Part shown: positions 1-9,144 of the stretch, piece by piece
Layout: each line of letters begins with the position of its first letter
Position numbering within the stretch: the stretch's first letter is position 1
NCBI RefSeq assembly: GCF_051903065.1
Contig: NZ_CP178438.1
Strand: one strand, 5' to 3'
Origin: Escherichia coli
GTDB lineage: Bacteria; Pseudomonadota; Gammaproteobacteria; Enterobacterales; Enterobacteriaceae
Length of the DNA stretch: 64,000 bases
Position numbers and translations under genes: made by a program
The notes under the pieces: model-generated
The model's input: the letters and a program-made list of their open reading frames with translations, nothing else
The model's database searches: none
Told to the model about the DNA's origin: nothing

Positions 1-108
1 TGGTTCTTCGTTATCATGAGCAGCGAACAGATTTGGCAAAGCGTATGCAGCCTGGGGCCCCTTAGGGTTTAAGCCCATATGTAAGCAAATGGCGCATACG
101 CTGAGCCA

Positions 109-151
<43 letters not shown>

Positions 152-168
152 AGCAAGAATGGGCAATA

Positions 169-816
<648 letters not shown>

Positions 817-919
817 AGAAATGTAATGAATCCTGCCATCAGGTTACTCCATAATTTTGTTGGTCAAGACAGTTAATTACGTGACGTATGCTCAGGCACC
901 GGATGCCGTTTTACAGGGC

Positions 920-1651
920 TCACCTGCCATCCAGTAGACGCCCCGGCCCACGACTGCAACCATAATTACGTTGCCCAGAACCGTCATGCTGCTTCGTCTC
1001 ATACTTCACGAGATAACAGGCTCTCTCCATGGCTTTCTGCATCGCTTCCACATCACCACGCTTGACCCAGAGAACAGCGGCTTCACCCGGCTTTTTGTCT
1101 GAAGCCTTCCTGGTTTCAGAACATCCACCCGACAAAGGCGTATCATCGGAAGAAGGGCGAGCATCAGATGATGTCGGTTTACGGAAAGGCGTCCGCCTGG
1201 AAAAATGAACCAGTCCATTACCCTGCCAGGGCTCGAGATGCAGAGCACTGCACCATGCCAGCTTGATCAGCGTCGCCAGCGAAGAAGGAACGGTGAAATC
1301 CCCTGGCGAGCACCAGGTATCTTTGTTGAGCAGTAATATCACGTGATAATGTTTCCTGCCTTTTTCCTTGCCAAACTCCCGACACCAGAAATAACGCAGA
1401 GTGGTTGCACGCACACGCTTGTTGGCACGTCGTTTTTTCCGCTGGTAAGCCTGAATTTTTGCTTTCAGGGATTCGAAAAAACGAGAAATCACTGCTGAAT
1501 CTAAATCGGTATCCATAATAGTGGCAGGCATATACTCAGGAAAACGTAAATCCACCCGAATTAACGAGACGGCACGGTGCTGCACTAGGGCACTGTCGAG
1601 AAGGCTGTCAAAACGGGATAACCAGTAAGCATTGTGTATTGGTTGATTCAT
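920..1651 (-). CDS. YfjJ/YagK-family protein (inovirus Gp2-like) of cryptic prophages
   Basis: 243 aa ORF; recalled similarity to E. coli YfjJ/YagK paralogs; sits beside the CP4-like module. Confidence 0.7.
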   Translation of the reverse strand: MNQPIHNAYWLSRFDSLLDSALVQHRAVSLIRVDLRFPEYMPATIMDTDLDSAVISRFFESLKAKIQAYQRKKRRANKRVRATTLRYFWCREFGKEKGRKHYHVILLLNKDTWCSPGDFTVPSSLATLIKLAWCSALHLEPWQGNGLVHFSRRTPFRKPTSSDARPSSDDTPLSGGCSETRKASDKKPGEAAVLWVKRGDVEAMQKAMERACYLVKYETKQHDGSGQRNYGCSRGPGRLLDGR

Positions 1652-2499
1652 GATGAGAGATCTCCGTTGATTTGGATTGACTTCACATCATTAATCACTG
1701 CGGTAAAACTTTACGGCATCCCGCCATTGAGCAACGCCAATGGCTCCTGATTAAAACAGAATGAATCCCCCACGAAGAAAAGATAAACCTACACGCAGGG
1801 TAAAACACACAACAACGGCATAAATGGTTTTTAAAAACTACAAAGCCCGAAGGGAAACGGATCAACAGAACGTGCAAACAAAACACCAAAAACGCAATCA
1901 GAACGCTTTCTGCTGCTGTGAATCAACAACAATACCAAAACCTACAGCTTAACCACAAAACTCAATCACAGAGCCGAATAGCGCGTTTAAAACCTGTTTA
2001 CAGATAACCCTGCCCCGAGAACAAAAACCACCAACATCAGAATCGATTTTCTTATCCTGAAAACGTTACTTTTCAACACACCATAAAAACGATTAACCAT
2101 CGATAACGTAAATCTCATCTGAATCAAAACACCAGAACCAATCATCACGCTTTTTCTGAAAAGAGCCTTATGATGAAGATAATCACCTTGCACTGAGAAA
2201 AAACACCAGGGCCAGTTAATCATCTCATCAATCTTATCGCTACAAAATCATCCATAAAACCATTTAACAAAATCATCGTAAGCACACAGTAAATCACGCC
2301 AGGTTATCTCAGCCGGATTTGCGTTTTACATAAAAACACTTGTCTCAGGTTAACGACTAAAAACACGAAAACTCATAAAAGGTTAAATGTAACATCAGAA
2401 AAATAGAATATCATATTGATTGCTTAAACAGGAAAGATTGTTTTGTAGTAGCATTAAGCTGATTTTAGTTAACGTAAAAACAGGACTGACAGGTTTACT

Positions 2500-2722
2500 A
2501 AACTGGATGTGTATCAGACAAAGCAATGTGTATAACAATACTTAATGAAAACACTTGTAGAATTGTTTATGAAAACATGTGTATGTCTGGTAAAACACTT
2601 AGTAGAAAATACGTGTATAACACTTACTGAAATGCTTAGTAAAAACACTTAGTAAAATATGTGTAGAATTATCTATTTAAAAAGATATGTATATAACACT
2701 TAATAAAAACATGTGTATATAG
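2500..2722. repeat. Array of degenerate direct repeats (ATGTGTAT / AACACTTA units), iteron- or operator-like
   Basis: At least seven copies of ATGTGTAT-like and five of AACACTTA(G/A)TA-like motifs within about 220 bp of AT-rich DNA; fused unit GTGTATAACACTTA seen at about 2612 and 2687. Confidence 0.55.
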
Positions 2723-3401
2723 TATCATACCGACATTCTCAACATCTTCAGACACTCATGCAGACTGAATGTTCGTTTCAGTTTTTCACGGCCAGCATGG
2801 GGATTTTTGTTCTGAAAACGGAGCAGATTTACTCTGGAATTATTTTTCTGTCCCCGTATTTCAGGCCCCAGAAAAGACAATCCGAAGCAAACCGTTTGTC
2901 AGCTTCCATATCATCTTTTACCCCCGGAAAGTGATCGCGTTTTACAACCAGAATGACAGCCATACTGATTATGTCGTCTCCCGGCCCCCTTCACATATAA
3001 CATGCATGCCTGTCATTGCTTACTGCTCCACATGACAGGATTTCACATACAGGATGCGCATTCAGTGTTTTTATCGCCACTATAACAGACAGATTACTGT
3101 CGCTTTTACTCTTCAGATTGTTAATCTGACCACAAGAACAGTCGAACAGTACAACGACACACCCAAGGAGGATATGAGCAGTAGTTGATAGCATGTTTTA
3201 ATTTATTATGAATAGATCAAGAATAGATCGTGAATAGTTAGAGAATAGTTCTTCAGCATCTCACAGAGTGATCAAGCCTTGAAGTGATTGCTTTTTGAAC
3301 ACAAGTCCGGATGCAATGTTTTTTTGTTAACTTCCTTGCATATTCGATTTCCATGTGATAGTGAAAATCACCAGAAGAGAATGCGATTGAGGCGTAATCA
3401 G

Positions 3402-4211
3402 ATGAAACAATATGAAGATGGTTATAACGTGAATGGATATAGCTGGGAAAATGAAACAATTGAGTATTTGTTGAATGATAAACAACTGACAGATAATCAC
3501 ATACCTGAATGGGTTAAAAAAAATGAAATTGCAGCATTCTGGTTCTGGTTAGTTATAATTAACACAGATCCCAAACTCCTTGGGGTTCGTAATGAATTAG
3601 GGTTCAATACAGCCATGATGGGGCTGATTCCTGCGGGGAGTATACCCATAACAACAATTCCTTCAGATCATGAAATGAGACTGGATGTTATAAGCAAATG
3701 GATTAATGCATTAATCCTTGACAATCAATCAGATTGCTTCATCTCAACAATGCATCAAAACTGGCTGCAGATCGAAAAGAGAAACGAAGCCAAATGGCTT
3801 AAAAAGAATACAGAACAACTCGAATGGGCATGGAAATATATCAATGCACGCATCCCGCACACGTATCTTTCCTGGTTTTATCCTGTAAGTGATAACGAAA
3901 GATACATTGCTATCGTAGTTTTACTAAAAATTTTATTCCCCGCAGATACACCATACTTACAGCAGCCAAAAGTACTTCACTATGGGGTTGCCGCAAAAGA
4001 AAAATTTTTCGACAAGATGCACAATGCATTCCGAAAACAGTTTACCGACGGAAAAAAAGATAAGCGGGTACAAATCAACGTTAAAATATCATCAGATGCA
4101 AAACGTACTCTGGACAGACTGACCAGAGAACTGAAAACAACACAACAGGCTGTCCTGGAACATCTGATTCAGAACCACAGGCTGGTGATTCAGAACCACA
4201 GACTGTATTAA
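3402..4211 (+). CDS. Hypothetical protein with C-terminal ribbon-helix-helix-like segment
   Basis: ORF 3288-4211; preferred ATG at 3402 (MKQYEDG) preceded by GAGG. C-terminus RVQINVKISSDAKRTLDRLTRELKTTQQAVLEHLIQ resembles an RHH DNA-binding motif. N-terminal about 220 aa unrecognised. Confidence 0.5.
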   Translation: MKQYEDGYNVNGYSWENETIEYLLNDKQLTDNHIPEWVKKNEIAAFWFWLVIINTDPKLLGVRNELGFNTAMMGLIPAGSIPITTIPSDHEMRLDVISKWINALILDNQSDCFISTMHQNWLQIEKRNEAKWLKKNTEQLEWAWKYINARIPHTYLSWFYPVSDNERYIAIVVLLKILFPADTPYLQQPKVLHYGVAAKEKFFDKMHNAFRKQFTDGKKDKRVQINVKISSDAKRTLDRLTRELKTTQQAVLEHLIQNHRLVIQNHRLY

Positions 4212-5155
4212 CTTTCACCACTTCTGCTCCTGCCGATTTTCTTCTTTTGGTAGTGTCTCCTGGCTGCGGATATCAGATACTTTTCCGTCATTTTGTTGCA
4301 GAACTCTTCAATGTAGTTAATCATTTTCTGGTGTGCTTTCAGCTTTTCTTCCCCGGGGGACGCTTTCAGATAAATGTCCTCCTTTTCCACAAGCGCATTG
4401 ACAAACTCCCCTAAACATCCCTGGTTATAAAGCGACGTGAAAAACAACACATCCCCCAGTCTCTCCAGTAACTGTGGTTTATCCCCGAAATGTTTTTTTA
4501 TACTTTCAAAAGGTTTTCTATTTTCCGGATCAAAAAAAACACTTAATCCCAGTCGCTTATATTCCTGGTAAAAAAGTTCAAACGTCGGGGATGCTGAACG
4601 GCAAATAAACGAAGACTGCGCCCATGGATTAAAATCTGTGACACGCCTCCCCTCCCGCACTTCCTGTCGTGTCAGCGGTGGTTCAGCAAACCAGGCGTCC
4701 AGCTCAGCCGAATCGTTATCCCTGCTCAAAACCTCATACAAACTGCCCGTGAACGGTTGAGCCGTTTGTTTTGTTGCTTCGCCTTCTGATTGTCTGAATC
4801 CATCCACTTTTCTCCGGATATTACGCGGAATCAGCATAAAAGGCGGGACATTAAGTGATAAACGTTTACCCGTCATGCGATACCATTGACCTACCTCAAC
4901 CTTAATCCGTGTATCTGACTTTAGCTCAAGTGCCATTATGTTAAGCAGGTACAGATAACGCACCGTATAACGATTAAAATGTTTCTCCGGATCAAACGAT
5001 TCTGACCGTTCTCCTCTGTACACGAGTCTGCTGCGCTTCAGTATTCGCAGAGTATATTTCCAGGCCGGACTTTTACAAATGGCGGTAACTCTGGCCTTAT
5101 TAACAATGTCGCGTAATGCATCAATCTGTTGTGCAGTCATCTCTTCCCTCCACAC
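4208..5155 (-). CDS. Hypothetical protein, no recognisable domain
   Basis: 315 aa ORF (alternative start 5140, MTAQQ). Convergent with the previous gene; stop codons overlap within TTAA. Uninterrupted long ORF, basic C-terminal tail. Confidence 0.5.
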   Translation of the reverse strand: MWREEMTAQQIDALRDIVNKARVTAICKSPAWKYTLRILKRSRLVYRGERSESFDPEKHFNRYTVRYLYLLNIMALELKSDTRIKVEVGQWYRMTGKRLSLNVPPFMLIPRNIRRKVDGFRQSEGEATKQTAQPFTGSLYEVLSRDNDSAELDAWFAEPPLTRQEVREGRRVTDFNPWAQSSFICRSASPTFELFYQEYKRLGLSVFFDPENRKPFESIKKHFGDKPQLLERLGDVLFFTSLYNQGCLGEFVNALVEKEDIYLKASPGEEKLKAHQKMINYIEEFCNKMTEKYLISAARRHYQKKKIGRSRSGES

Positions 5156-5246
5156 TTTGTCACTCCAGATTTTTTCACGCCCATATTACCTGAATGATAA
5201 ACCGGATTAGTGTGATCCGGTTCAGTGAAATCAACAGGATACCGGT

Positions 5247-6131
5247 ATGTCATTCAGCCATTCTTCCCTCTCCGCACAAGTGAAATCATATCTGACGTTT
5301 CTTCCTGAAGAAATTCGCCAGAAAATCCTTGAACATCTCCACGGTGTTATTCATTACGAGCCCGTGATTGGCATTATGGGTAAATCCGGCACCGGCAAAA
5401 GCAGTCTGTGTAATGCCATTTTTCAGTCCCGTATCTGCGCCACGCATCCCCTGAACGGCTGCACCCGCCAGGCTCATCGCCTCACCCTGCAGATTGGTGA
5501 ACGCAGAATGACGCTGGTCGATCTGCCCGGCATTGGTGAAACACCGCAGCATGATCAGGAATACCGGGAGCTTTACCGTCAGTTACTGCCGGAACTGGAT
5601 CTGATTATCTGGATCCTGCGGGCTGATGAACGTGCGTATGCTGCTGATATTGCCATGCATCAGTTTTTACTGAATGAAGGTGCAGATCCCTCGCGTTTTC
5701 TGTTTGTTCTCAGCCATGCCGATCGCGTGTTTCCTGCTGAAGAATGGAACGACGCAGAAAAATGCCCGTCCCGTCAGCAGGAACTCTCACTGGCGACAGT
5801 AACAGCCCGGGTGGCCACCCTGTTCCCGTCATCATTTCCGGTACTCTCCGTTGCAGCGCCTGTCGGCTGGAATCTTCCGGCACTGGTGTCACTGATGATC
5901 CACGCACTGCCACCACAGGCAACCAGCGCGGTTTATTCACATATCCGGGGGGAAAACCGCTCTGAACAGGCCCGGAAACACGCACAACAGACTTTTGGTG
6001 ACGCCATCGGGAAAAGTTTTGACGACGCCGTTGCCCGGTTCAGTTTTCCGGCCTGGATGTTACAGCTTCTGCGTAAAGCCCGGGCCCGCATTATCCACCT
6101 ACTGGTCACACTGTGGGATCACCTGTTCTGA
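5247..6131 (+). CDS. YeeP/YkfA/YfjP-family P-loop GTPase of CP4-like islands
   Basis: Walker A GIMGKSGTGKSS; G3-like DLPGIGE; recalled similarity to the YeeP/YfjP/YkfA family. Confidence 0.8.
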   Translation: MSFSHSSLSAQVKSYLTFLPEEIRQKILEHLHGVIHYEPVIGIMGKSGTGKSSLCNAIFQSRICATHPLNGCTRQAHRLTLQIGERRMTLVDLPGIGETPQHDQEYRELYRQLLPELDLIIWILRADERAYAADIAMHQFLLNEGADPSRFLFVLSHADRVFPAEEWNDAEKCPSRQQELSLATVTARVATLFPSSFPVLSVAAPVGWNLPALVSLMIHALPPQATSAVYSHIRGENRSEQARKHAQQTFGDAIGKSFDDAVARFSFPAWMLQLLRKARARIIHLLVTLWDHLF

Positions 6132-6249
6132 GCGCCCCGGAGTCCCCCGTGGCAACCGTATACCTTTACACGACAACGGATTACGGTAACCACTGCCGTA
6201 TACCGTCTGTCATTATCAATAACACGCTCTTTAATTTCAGAGGTCAGTC

Positions 6250-6927
6250 ATGAATACCAGAATGCTTTTTCCCCTGCTGTTCACTGTGGCATCCTTCTCC
6301 ACCTCCGCCGGTAACTGGGCTGTCAAAAACGGCTGGTGTCAGACCATGACGGAAGATGGTCAGGCGCTGGTAATGCTGAAAAATGGCACGATTGGTATTA
6401 CCGGCCTGATGCAGGGATGCCCGAATGGCGTACAGACGCTCCTGGGCAGCCGTATCAGTATTAACGGTAACCTGATCCCCACATCACAAATGTGTAATCA
6501 GCAGACAGGATTCAGGGCTGTTGAGGTGGAAGTCGGACAGGCGCCGGAAATGGTCAAAAAAGCCGTTCACTCCATAGCAGAGCGTGATGTGTCCGTTTTA
6601 CAGGCATTTGGTGTACGAATGGAATTCACCCGCGGTGATATGCTGAAGGTCTGTCCGAAATTTGTCACATCACTTGCCGGTTTTTCCCCGAAACAGACAC
6701 CCGCCATTAATAAAGATTCCGTCCTGCAGGCTGCCCGGCTGGCATACGCCCGGGAATATGACGAGGAAACAACAGAAACCGCTGATTTTGGCTCTTACGA
6801 AGTAAAAGGCAATAAGGTTGAGTTTGAAGTGTTCAATCCTGAAGACCGTGCGTACGACAAAGTGACCGTCACGGTTGGTGCTGACGGTAATGCCACCGGT
6901 GCCAGCGTTGAATTTATCGGAAAATAG
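6250..6927 (+). CDS. Secreted protein of unknown function (N-terminal signal peptide)
   Basis: 225 aa; hydrophobic N-terminus MNTRMLFPLLFTVASFSTSAG; occupies the slot downstream of the GTPase where flu (Ag43) sits in CP4-44. Confidence 0.55.
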   Translation: MNTRMLFPLLFTVASFSTSAGNWAVKNGWCQTMTEDGQALVMLKNGTIGITGLMQGCPNGVQTLLGSRISINGNLIPTSQMCNQQTGFRAVEVEVGQAPEMVKKAVHSIAERDVSVLQAFGVRMEFTRGDMLKVCPKFVTSLAGFSPKQTPAINKDSVLQAARLAYAREYDEETTETADFGSYEVKGNKVEFEVFNPEDRAYDKVTVTVGADGNATGASVEFIGK

Positions 6928-6956
6928 CCGGTATGTCGGACTGTCACCCTGTTTAA

Positions 6957-7166
6957 TTGCCCGAAGGCCCTTTCTCACGCGAACAGGCGGTTGCCGTCAC
7001 AACAGCTTACCGCAATGTGCTTATTGAAGATGACCAGGGAACGCATTTCCGGCTGGTTATCCGTAATGCTGAAGGTCAGTTGCGCTGGCGGTACTGGAAT
7101 TTTGAATCCGATGCCGGAAAACAGCTTAATGTGTGGCTCGCCAGTGAAGGGCTTCTCAGACAATAA
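6957..7166 (+). CDS. Small conserved island protein (DUF905-like)
   Basis: 69 aa ORF followed directly by a hairpin plus T-tract terminator; family recalled from CP4-like islands; start uncertain. Confidence 0.4.
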
Positions 7167-7189
7167 ACGTCATTCATTTCATCCATCAG

Positions 7190-7220
7190 GCCGCGTCTTC
7201 TCCGGGAGGCGCGGCTTTTT
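7190..7220 (+). terminator. Rho-independent terminator
   Basis: GCCGCG ... CGCGGC stem followed by TTTTT. Confidence 0.6.
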
Positions 7221-7256
7221 CATTTATATCGCTAACTCATTCATAAGGAGCAAATC

Positions 7257-8075
7257 ATGCGATTAGCAAGTCGTTTTGGTTATGCGAACCAGATACGCCG
7301 TGACCGCCCCTTAACTCGCGAAGAACTGATGCAGGTCGTCCCCAGCGTATTCGGGGAAGATAAGCACACATCCAGAAGCGAGAACTATACCTGGATCCCC
7401 ACCATCACCGTGCTGGAAAGCCTGCAGCGGGAAGGCTTTCAGCCCTTCTTTGCCTGCCAGACCCGCGTACGTGACCCGGGCCGCCGGGGGTATACCAAAC
7501 ACATGCTGCGTCTGCGCCGTGACGGGGAGATAAACGGACAACATGTCCCTGAAATCATCCTGCTGAACTCCCATGACGGTACCTCCAGCTACCAGATGCT
7601 GCCGGGTTACTTCAGGTTCGTCTGCCAGAACGGCTGCGTCTGTGGTCAGTCTCTGGGGGAAGTGCGTGTTCCGCACCGGGGAAATGTGGTGGACAGAGTC
7701 ATTGAAGGGGCTTACGAAGTGGTGGGCGTTTTTGACCGGATTGAGGAAAAGCGTGATGCCATGCAGTCGCTGGTCCTGCCGCCACCGGCACGCCAGGCGC
7801 TGGCACAGGCGGCACTGACTTACCGTTATGGTGACGAACATCAGCCCGTCACCACCGCCGACATTCTGACGCCACGACGCCGGGAGGATTACGGTAAGGA
7901 CCTGTGGAGTGCTTATCAGACCATCCAGGAAAATATGCTGAAAGGCGGGATTTCTGGTCGCAGCGCTAAAGGAAAACGTATCCACACCCGTGCCATTCAC
8001 AGCATCGACACGGACATTAAGCTCAATCGCGCATTGTGGGTGATGGCAGAAACGCTGCTGGAGAGCATGCGCTGA
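7257..8075 (+). CDS. DUF932-family protein (YfjQ/YafZ-like)
   Basis: 272 aa; recalled similarity to YfjQ/YafZ; conserved position upstream of the antirestriction gene. Confidence 0.75.
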   Translation: MRLASRFGYANQIRRDRPLTREELMQVVPSVFGEDKHTSRSENYTWIPTITVLESLQREGFQPFFACQTRVRDPGRRGYTKHMLRLRRDGEINGQHVPEIILLNSHDGTSSYQMLPGYFRFVCQNGCVCGQSLGEVRVPHRGNVVDRVIEGAYEVVGVFDRIEEKRDAMQSLVLPPPARQALAQAALTYRYGDEHQPVTTADILTPRRREDYGKDLWSAYQTIQENMLKGGISGRSAKGKRIHTRAIHSIDTDIKLNRALWVMAETLLESMR

Positions 8076-8166
8076 TGCTGTTTCCCTGAAAGTGCAACCC
8101 TGACTCACGTCTGTACCAGTCCCCGGGCATTCTTCCATTCATTTACTTTTTATAAGGAATCATCTC

Positions 8167-8652
8167 ATGACAACCTTTTCGCATAGCTCCACCACGCCTT
8201 CTGTTTCCGTAACCACTGCACCAGGGAATAACCAGTCTCAACTGGTTGCCACTCCCGTCCCTGATGAACAGCGCATCAGTTTCTGGCCGCAACATTTTGG
8301 CCTCATTCCACAGTGGGTGACCCTGGAGCCCCGTGTCTTCGGCTGGATGGACCGTCTTTGCGAAGACTACTGCGGTGGTATCTGGAATCTGTACACCCTG
8401 AACAACGGTGGGGCATTTATGGTACCCGAACCGGATGACGATGATGACGAAACATGGGTACTGTTCAATGCCATGAACGGCAACCGCGCTGAAATGAGCC
8501 CGGAAGCCGCCGGCATTGCCGCCTGTCTGATGGCGTACAGTCATCACGCCTGTCGTACAGAGAATTATGCCATGACGGTCCATTATTATCGGTTGCGGGA
8601 TTACGCCCTGCAGCATCCGGAATGCAACGCCATTATGCGCATCATCGACTGA
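8167..8652 (+). CDS. Antirestriction protein, ArdB/KlcA-like (YfjX/YafX family)
   Basis: 161 aa; acidic stretch PEPDDDDDETW; family and position typical of CP4-like islands. Confidence 0.75.
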   Translation: MTTFSHSSTTPSVSVTTAPGNNQSQLVATPVPDEQRISFWPQHFGLIPQWVTLEPRVFGWMDRLCEDYCGGIWNLYTLNNGGAFMVPEPDDDDDETWVLFNAMNGNRAEMSPEAAGIAACLMAYSHHACRTENYAMTVHYYRLRDYALQHPECNAIMRIID

Positions 8653-8667
8653 ATGGAGAGAAGCACA

Positions 8668-9144
8668 ATGCAACAGCTTTCCTTTCTGCCCGGAGAGATG
8701 ACGCCCGGCGAGCGCAGCCTCATTCTGCGGGCCCTGAAAACCCTGGACCGCCATCTTCATGAACCCGGTGTGGCCTTCACCTCCACGCATGCGGCACGGG
8801 AATGGCTGATTCTGAACATGGCGGGACTGGAGCGGGAAGAGTTCCGGGTACTGTATCTGAACAACCAGAATCAGCTGATTGCCGGTGAAACCCTCTTCAC
8901 AGGCACCATCAACCGCACGGAAGTCCATCCCCGGGAGGTAATTAAACGTGCCCTGTACCACAATGCCGCTGCCGTGATACTGGCACACAACCACCCGTCC
9001 GGTGAAGTCACCCCCAGTAAGGCAGATCGCCTTATCACGGAACGCCTGGTACAGGCACTGGCCCTGGTGGATATCCGGGTACCGGACCATCTGATAGTTG
9101 GTGGCAACCAGGTTTTCTCCTTTGCGGAACACGGTCTGCTTTAA
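8668..9144 (+). CDS. yeeS: RadC-like JAB/MPN domain protein (YeeS/YfjY/YkfG family)
   Basis: JAMM motif HNHPSG; near identity to recalled YeeS from MQQLSFLPGEMTPGERSL; ORF track starts 15 nt upstream at 8653. Confidence 0.85.
   Translation: MQQLSFLPGEMTPGERSLILRALKTLDRHLHEPGVAFTSTHAAREWLILNMAGLEREEFRVLYLNNQNQLIAGETLFTGTINRTEVHPREVIKRALYHNAAAVILAHNHPSGEVTPSKADRLITERLVQALALVDIRVPDHLIVGGNQVFSFAEHGLL

Follow-up and report, generated by a model that had tools for sequence, protein, structure and literature searches.

A fixed in-frame 21-bp tandem duplication in the last codons of a predicted RHH gene from a CP4-type island of Escherichia coli

Tandem repeats reside within the phase-variable genes of Haemophilus and Neisseria, the contingency loci, which typically feature many copies of units of 1–7 nt. 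The repeat described here resembles them because it is a tandem array inside a gene, in which gain or loss of units is conceivable. Unlike contingency loci, it is made by two diverged 21-bp copies, preserves the reading frame and is invariant in all carriers. In-frame indels made by slippage in bacterial coding sequences share with it the head-to-tail arrangement, a unit length divisible by 3, a structurally permissive protein terminus, fixation in one lineage, and the decay of the copies by point mutation. Compared with ordinary in-frame indels, its sole oddity is the location of the site, immediately next to the point where the stop codons of two convergent genes overlap. The encoded protein is similar to ribbon-helix-helix (RHH) proteins (CopG/Arc/MetJ; TraM, TraY, ParD/PrpA, TacA, FitA, RepB-RCR_reg) in its strand/helix/helix pattern, in the predicted fold and in the predicted dimer of paired strands. 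It differs from them because the RHH region is found at the extreme C-terminus of a helical domain of ~220 residues, for which Pfam, NCBIfam, PHROG and PADLOC have no matching family, and because helix B features a duplicated heptad in the allele analyzed here. Gene order at the locus is that of islands of the CP4-44 and CP4-57 type (YfjI, inovirus-Gp2-like, YeeP/YfjP-type GTPase, DUF932, antirestriction, RadC, CbeA/CbtA). Within this order, the annotation of the RHH gene and of its convergent partner is limited to "hypothetical protein". The feature is of an ordinary kind: a tandem duplication, in frame and fixed, within an uncharacterised protein whose predicted fold is a known DNA-binding one.

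The window, i.e. the whole 64-kb stretch of E. coli DNA analyzed, includes the features listed in Table 1. Gene calls have been taken from the RefSeq annotation of one complete genome with an identical locus, and the 100%-identical stretch was found in many complete E. coli genomes. The 269-aa gene is preceded by genes of the YfjI and inovirus-Gp2 families, and followed, beyond its convergent neighbor, by genes encoding a YeeP/YfjP-like GTPase, DUF905, DUF932, an antirestriction protein, RadC, DUF987, CbeA/CbtA, DUF5983, DUF957 and DUF4942. According to this annotation, the CP4-type neighborhood (GTPase, DUF932, antirestriction, RadC, DUF987, CbeA/CbtA) is present, and by gene content the 269-aa gene sits in a CP4-type genomic island of E. 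coli. No tRNA gene was identified within the 64-kb window.

Table 1. Location of the 21-bp repeat and of the surrounding features in the 64-kb window
Feature	Position	Strand	Details
269-aa hypothetical protein gene	3402..4211	+	RefSeq WP_032153709.1
Predicted RHH domain	4065..4202	+	Beta-strand 222-230, helix A 231-244, helix B 248-257, on to 267 via the duplicated heptad
Repeat copy 1	4164..4184	+	CTGATTCAGAACCACAGGCTG; codes L255-L261 = LIQNHRL, C-terminal end of the predicted RHH helix B
Repeat copy 2	4185..4205	+	GTGATTCAGAACCACAGACTG; codes V262-L268 = VIQNHRL, extra heptad, missing in other allele lineages
TTAA, overlapping stop codons of both convergent genes	4208..4211	.	
Convergent 310-aa hypothetical gene	4208..5140	-	RefSeq WP_023155730.1; no family match

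The TTAA sequence is the sole overlap of the two genes. It is kept in 6/6 aligned E. coli alleles, and the same 4-bp gene overlap is found in a distant relative (L011). The 21-bp repeat was also said earlier to make up the 3' end of the gene region on the opposite strand, which is only loosely right, as the repeat lies 3 nt beyond the stop codon of the convergent gene, outside its coding sequence. Distant relatives keep the order RHH gene, convergent gene, GTPase, WYL, and longer loci add DUF932, RadC, DUF987 and CbeA. At the loci L011, L012 and L013, too, a convergent gene of ~275–310 aa assigned to no family comes next in each case, then a YeeP-like GTPase, then a WYL protein. Because gene order is kept in distant relatives, the RHH protein probably regulates something in the island module. 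No paper on the RHH gene or its convergent partner was retrieved in a literature search by the names of the neighboring GTPase. A widespread "hypothetical protein" is placed in this way in a broader family and in a conserved module, which is a starting point for studying island regulation.

Some genomes, NZ_CP033635.1 among them, host up to three paralogous loci, so that a single cell contains several CP4-type islands, in which the RHH gene is present as different alleles. In related genomes the gene pair has been repeatedly disrupted by insertion sequences. An IS3 element is inserted inside the 1.87-kb region in EC12, EC15, EC18, XH989, XH987 and STK39-3-E, and the convergent gene is truncated by IS26 in strain 730V1 (L002, 2334–3038).

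The two 21-bp copies are arranged head-to-tail, and are identical at 19/21 positions, with C/G at position 1 and G/A at position 18. The preliminary description had located a perfect 21-bp duplication at 4164–4205. The repeat is found there, but is not perfect, and the consensus string reported at the time is slightly wrong. TRF assigned to the tract a period of 21, 2.0 copies and 95% matches, and a repeat search a core of 20 nt, 95% identical. The LIQNHRL-VIQNHRL repeat noticed at the C-terminus of the protein is correct by translation (residues counted from the gene start at 3402), and is followed by Y and the stop codon. Adjacent repeats of period 15–30 with up to 2 mismatches were found at 2 loci of the window, against 0.035 expected from 200 first-order Markov simulations, and chance is therefore no explanation for the repeat.

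The origin of the duplication has been traced by comparing alleles. A 601-nt junction query matched 563 records among 5,426 complete E. coli genomes; 193 genomes match at ≥99% identity, and 37 fall in a 95% sub-allele (730V1 type), in which both copies are present. In the classes of 79–84% identity, each full-length match listed falls short of the query by 21 bp. Exactly one repeat unit is missing from the aligned alleles of LH85-a, CFT073, SCU-101 and strain 222 (84%, 83% and 79% nucleotide identity). The proteins of these strains terminate with one heptad, as LILYGRLD, LILNGRLD or LILNRRLD (...LEQLILNGRLD and close variants). Alleles with a single copy are the commoner ones, ~333 records vs 230 with two copies. 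Since four other allele lineages lack exactly these 21 bp, the duplication is, as judged from the alignment, derived and limited to one allele lineage.

The original unit was probably TGATTCAGAACCACAGACTGG, in the register 4165–4185/4186–4206. Aligned in this register, the event is an exact duplication of TGATTCAGAACCACAGACTGG, and the Leu/Val difference between the heptads is made by the duplication junction (ctG+TG to GTG), not by a later mutation. The two copies of the window differ just by one synonymous change and by the L/V made at the junction. The two-copy repeat exists in at least three haplotypes. Haplotype 1, the window type, combines AGG (copy 1) with AGA (copy 2), and TAT comes next. 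Haplotype 2, found in 730V1, DSM103246 and AR_0089, features CAA in copy 1, then GAT. Haplotype 3, found in C5 and SC418, features AGA in copy 1 and AGC in copy 2, which changes Arg to Ser. Each haplotype has its own point changes; the duplication therefore predates them, and the copies are diverging independently. By this comparison of haplotypes, the duplication is old and stable.

The 269-aa protein consists of an N-terminal helical, Trp-rich domain and of a predicted C-terminal RHH domain. The full-length protein gave no usable match in Pfam, PHROGs and PADLOC, and in NCBIfam just a sub-threshold match to RepC_IncLM (IncL/M RepC; E = 0.0018; 18.2 bits, below the cut-off of 80). A search of the PDB by sequence returned noise only. 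The tail matched RHH_1 (E = 0.007–0.015; 15.7 bits, cut-off 20.5) and RepB-RCR_reg (E = 0.004–0.011; 17.7 bits, cut-off 21), in both cases below the cut-off. A profile search among 1.84 billion cluster representatives identified 111 relatives (E ≤ 1e-3), mostly 250–370 aa long and aligned over nearly the full length. The 269-aa protein belongs, by these alignments, to a wider uncurated family of ~111 cluster representatives, the members of which combine a helical, Trp-rich N-terminal domain with a predicted RHH domain at the C-terminus. Among 57 aligned members, RepB-RCR_reg is matched by 12 (best 7e-6) and RHH_1 by 7 (best 6e-5). The family alignment features the pattern xxLNxxIS - xxxKxxLDxLA - xxxxExLIxxEY, which is the classic RHH one. 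The tail past the conserved LI varies from 4 to ~50 residues across the family.

Structure predictions are in line with these data. AlphaFold2, run on the family alignment, gave a model (pLDDT 80.9, pTM 0.72) in which helix A spans residues 231–244, and helix B extends from 248 to 267 through both heptads. The predicted fold, beta-alpha-alpha with a strand pairing to a second subunit, resembles that of solved RHH proteins. A dimer was modeled as a single chain, by joining two C-terminal domains with a Gly/Ser linker and using a matching alignment. Strands 222–230 are paired in this model (core pLDDT ~90), a kink is present at residue 258, and residues 259–267 form a helix of lower confidence (block pLDDT 75, then linker). 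Owing to the kink and to the falling confidence over the second heptad, it is not certain that helix B runs on unbroken as in the monomer, and the added heptad would be helical according to both models. In the models, copy 1 codes for the end of RHH helix B, and copy 2 supplies the extra heptad, which lies immediately past the conserved core, where length varies freely in the family. The RHH-like nature of the protein, proposed from the sequence in the preliminary description, is supported by the sub-threshold RHH_1, RepB-RCR_reg and RepC matches, by the better matches of the relatives and by the predicted fold, which agrees with them; as an RHH domain, the C-terminal region would bind DNA. 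The statement that the repeat alters the tail of the protein also holds, as seven residues are added to the C-terminus.

Two relatives of 333 and 337 aa (P0134 and P0138, respectively) are frameshifted read-through proteins. The repeat is read in these as DSEPQAG-DSEPQTG, and translation runs on across the antisense strand of the convergent gene.

These data are probably explained by a single, old in-frame duplication of the slippage type, fixed in one lineage, tolerated, and by now an ordinary stable indel. Replication slippage or misalignment, the most likely origin, would have generated one 21-bp tandem duplication in the last codons of the gene, later fixed in one allele lineage of this CP4-type island gene. 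The last heptad of the RHH helix B would be repeated as a result, giving the tail LIQNHRL-VIQNHRL-(D/Y) in place of LILNGRL-D and close variants, and in the prediction about two turns are added to the C-terminal helix. At present the locus behaves as an ordinary stable indel, with two copies per carrier and slow, independent point divergence. Given the varied tail lengths in the family, the extra heptad is probably near-neutral, and tolerated by the protein. The limited differences between the copies, one synonymous change and the L/V made at the junction, could also fit purifying selection on both heptads. The repeat can be regarded as a stable allele marker, which sets apart one lineage of a CP4-type island gene, and suggests that the tail of the RHH domain tolerates an extra heptad.

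Alternatively, the duplication may be adaptive. A helix B longer by one heptad could change oligomerisation, cooperative binding to an operator, or the binding of a partner. The hydrophobic pattern (L/V-I....L) is kept in both heptads, most changes are synonymous or conservative, the models place a helix in the added segment, and up to 3 paralogous loci are found in some genomes. A candidate operator is found upstream. However, R is changed to S in copy 2 of one haplotype and D to Y at the last residue of the window protein, tail length is unconstrained across the family, and the single-copy alleles, as reported above, outnumber those with two copies. Adaptation is an unlikely explanation on balance. 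A specific form of it is that the duplication is a specificity change, in which oligomerisation or cooperative binding is altered, possibly at the upstream repeats; this too is rather improbable. If true, it would imply that paralogous CP4-type islands in one cell are regulated independently.

The upstream repeats are found at 2333–2702, an AT-rich stretch of 370 bp, as direct repeats on the same strand with the core AWAACACTTR. Six of the 7 matches of this motif in the window fall in this stretch, vs 0.43 expected in the whole window. The array is located ~0.7–1.1 kb upstream of the RHH gene in the window and ~0.67–0.82 kb upstream in other alleles, in a gap of ~1.7 kb containing no annotated gene. 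Its position is kept in divergent alleles (212–290 in L002, 214–292 in L003, 182–336 in L005). Rfam gave no match at the array, which may be an operator or iteron array. A different repeat, identified by TRF at 3210–3248, ~150 bp upstream of the start of the RHH gene, has a period of 11 and consists of 3.5 copies of GAATAGATCGA, with 82% matches.

Fixation of the duplication in one lineage has been weighed also against frequent change in copy number. The preliminary description had considered the repeat a possible slipped-strand variation site, i.e. an active, contingency-type tract, the copy number of which changes often between strains or within populations. In favor of this view, the two units are direct and in tandem, and allele lineages differ in copy number. 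The two-copy allele resides in about 215–230 of 5,426 complete E. coli genomes. A 122-nt junction query matches 215 genomes, a count which, as those of the other megablast junction constructs (101 and 143 nt), cannot tell copy numbers apart, since split alignments are re-joined at ~99% identity. The constructs were therefore replaced by blastn queries of 580, 622 and 578 nt, for which a 21-nt gap drops identity to 96.5%. The synthetic 580-nt one-copy query and the 622-nt three-copy query, the latter built on the window background only, matched 0/5,426 genomes each at ≥99% identity. In their best matches (96.5% and 96.6%, respectively), the two-copy allele is aligned across a gap of 21 nt. A one-copy query in the background of the 95% sub-allele (730V1) identified no one-copy genome, and the best 36 matches all span 599 bp, which correspond to two copies.

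Protein data are similar. The window protein is found on at least 1,000 contigs in the protein database. In the two 90%-identity protein clusters featuring this tail, two heptads are present in every complete, in-frame member read, and no one- or three-copy variant was found among the 48 database cluster members read. A 262-aa protein (P0137) was considered as a one-copy slippage variant and rejected, being a mosaic that carries the whole C-terminal region of another allele. Exact-pattern scans of metagenome contigs for one- and three-copy junctions, carried out without a two-copy positive control, gave no match.

Copy number is thus invariant (two) within the allele lineage, and the comparison among strains suggested at the outset reveals a difference, one vs two copies, between lineages only, which fits an origin by slippage-type duplication. 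Relative to length-variable loci, a tandem tract is present at the minimum size of two copies, and no variation in copy number is found among the ~215–230 carriers. The copies have diverged by haplotype-specific substitutions. Moreover, they are only two, and the unit is long; as it measures 21 bp, or 7 codons, and keeps the frame, a change in copy number would be unable to switch expression on or off. The notion of an active slipped-strand site is accordingly very hard to sustain. The same gene hosts a second small tandem repeat at 3537–3548, made by two copies of TTCTGG (F46-W47-F48-W49), and this, unlike the 21-bp repeat, shows 1, 2 or 3 copies among database proteins (FW in P0136, FWFW in the window, FWFWFW in P0002), which counts in favor of the slipped-strand reading. 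Each of the variants is found on few contigs, and sequencing errors are possible.

A role of the repeat at the DNA or RNA level, as a direct repeat bound by a protein, or as a structure at the junction which ends or regulates transcription, is highly improbable. In favor of it, the convergent junction leaves no room for a separate terminator; against it, no terminator-like site was found at the junction, the RNA fold of 4130–4260 is no stabler than that of shuffled sequence (z = 0.51), and no inverted repeat is present. Rfam gave no match in positions 1–9000 of the window, the 21-bp unit has no further occurrence in 2400–5400, and the gene layout is the same in single-copy alleles. A sequencing or assembly artefact is next to inconceivable, as >200 independent complete genomes, contributed by many laboratories and taken from many hosts, share the identical two-copy structure.

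Two additional observations concern other regions of the window. The sole other near-perfect tandem repeat of period 15–30 is found at 42615–42700, in an intergenic region. It is AT-rich and has a period of 16, with units AATAAATATTGAAATAT and ATAAATATTGAATATT, and is followed by a perfect hairpin (CCCGTACTGA...TCAGTACGGG), which adjoins the end of a minus-strand ORF of 620 aa. Residues 184–286, in the C-terminal part of the YeeP/YfjP-like GTPase (5247–6131), match the PADLOC LeoBC model (E = 4.7e-8), and a weak match to LeoA was also found; these matches hint at a relationship with dynamin-like, defence-associated GTPases.
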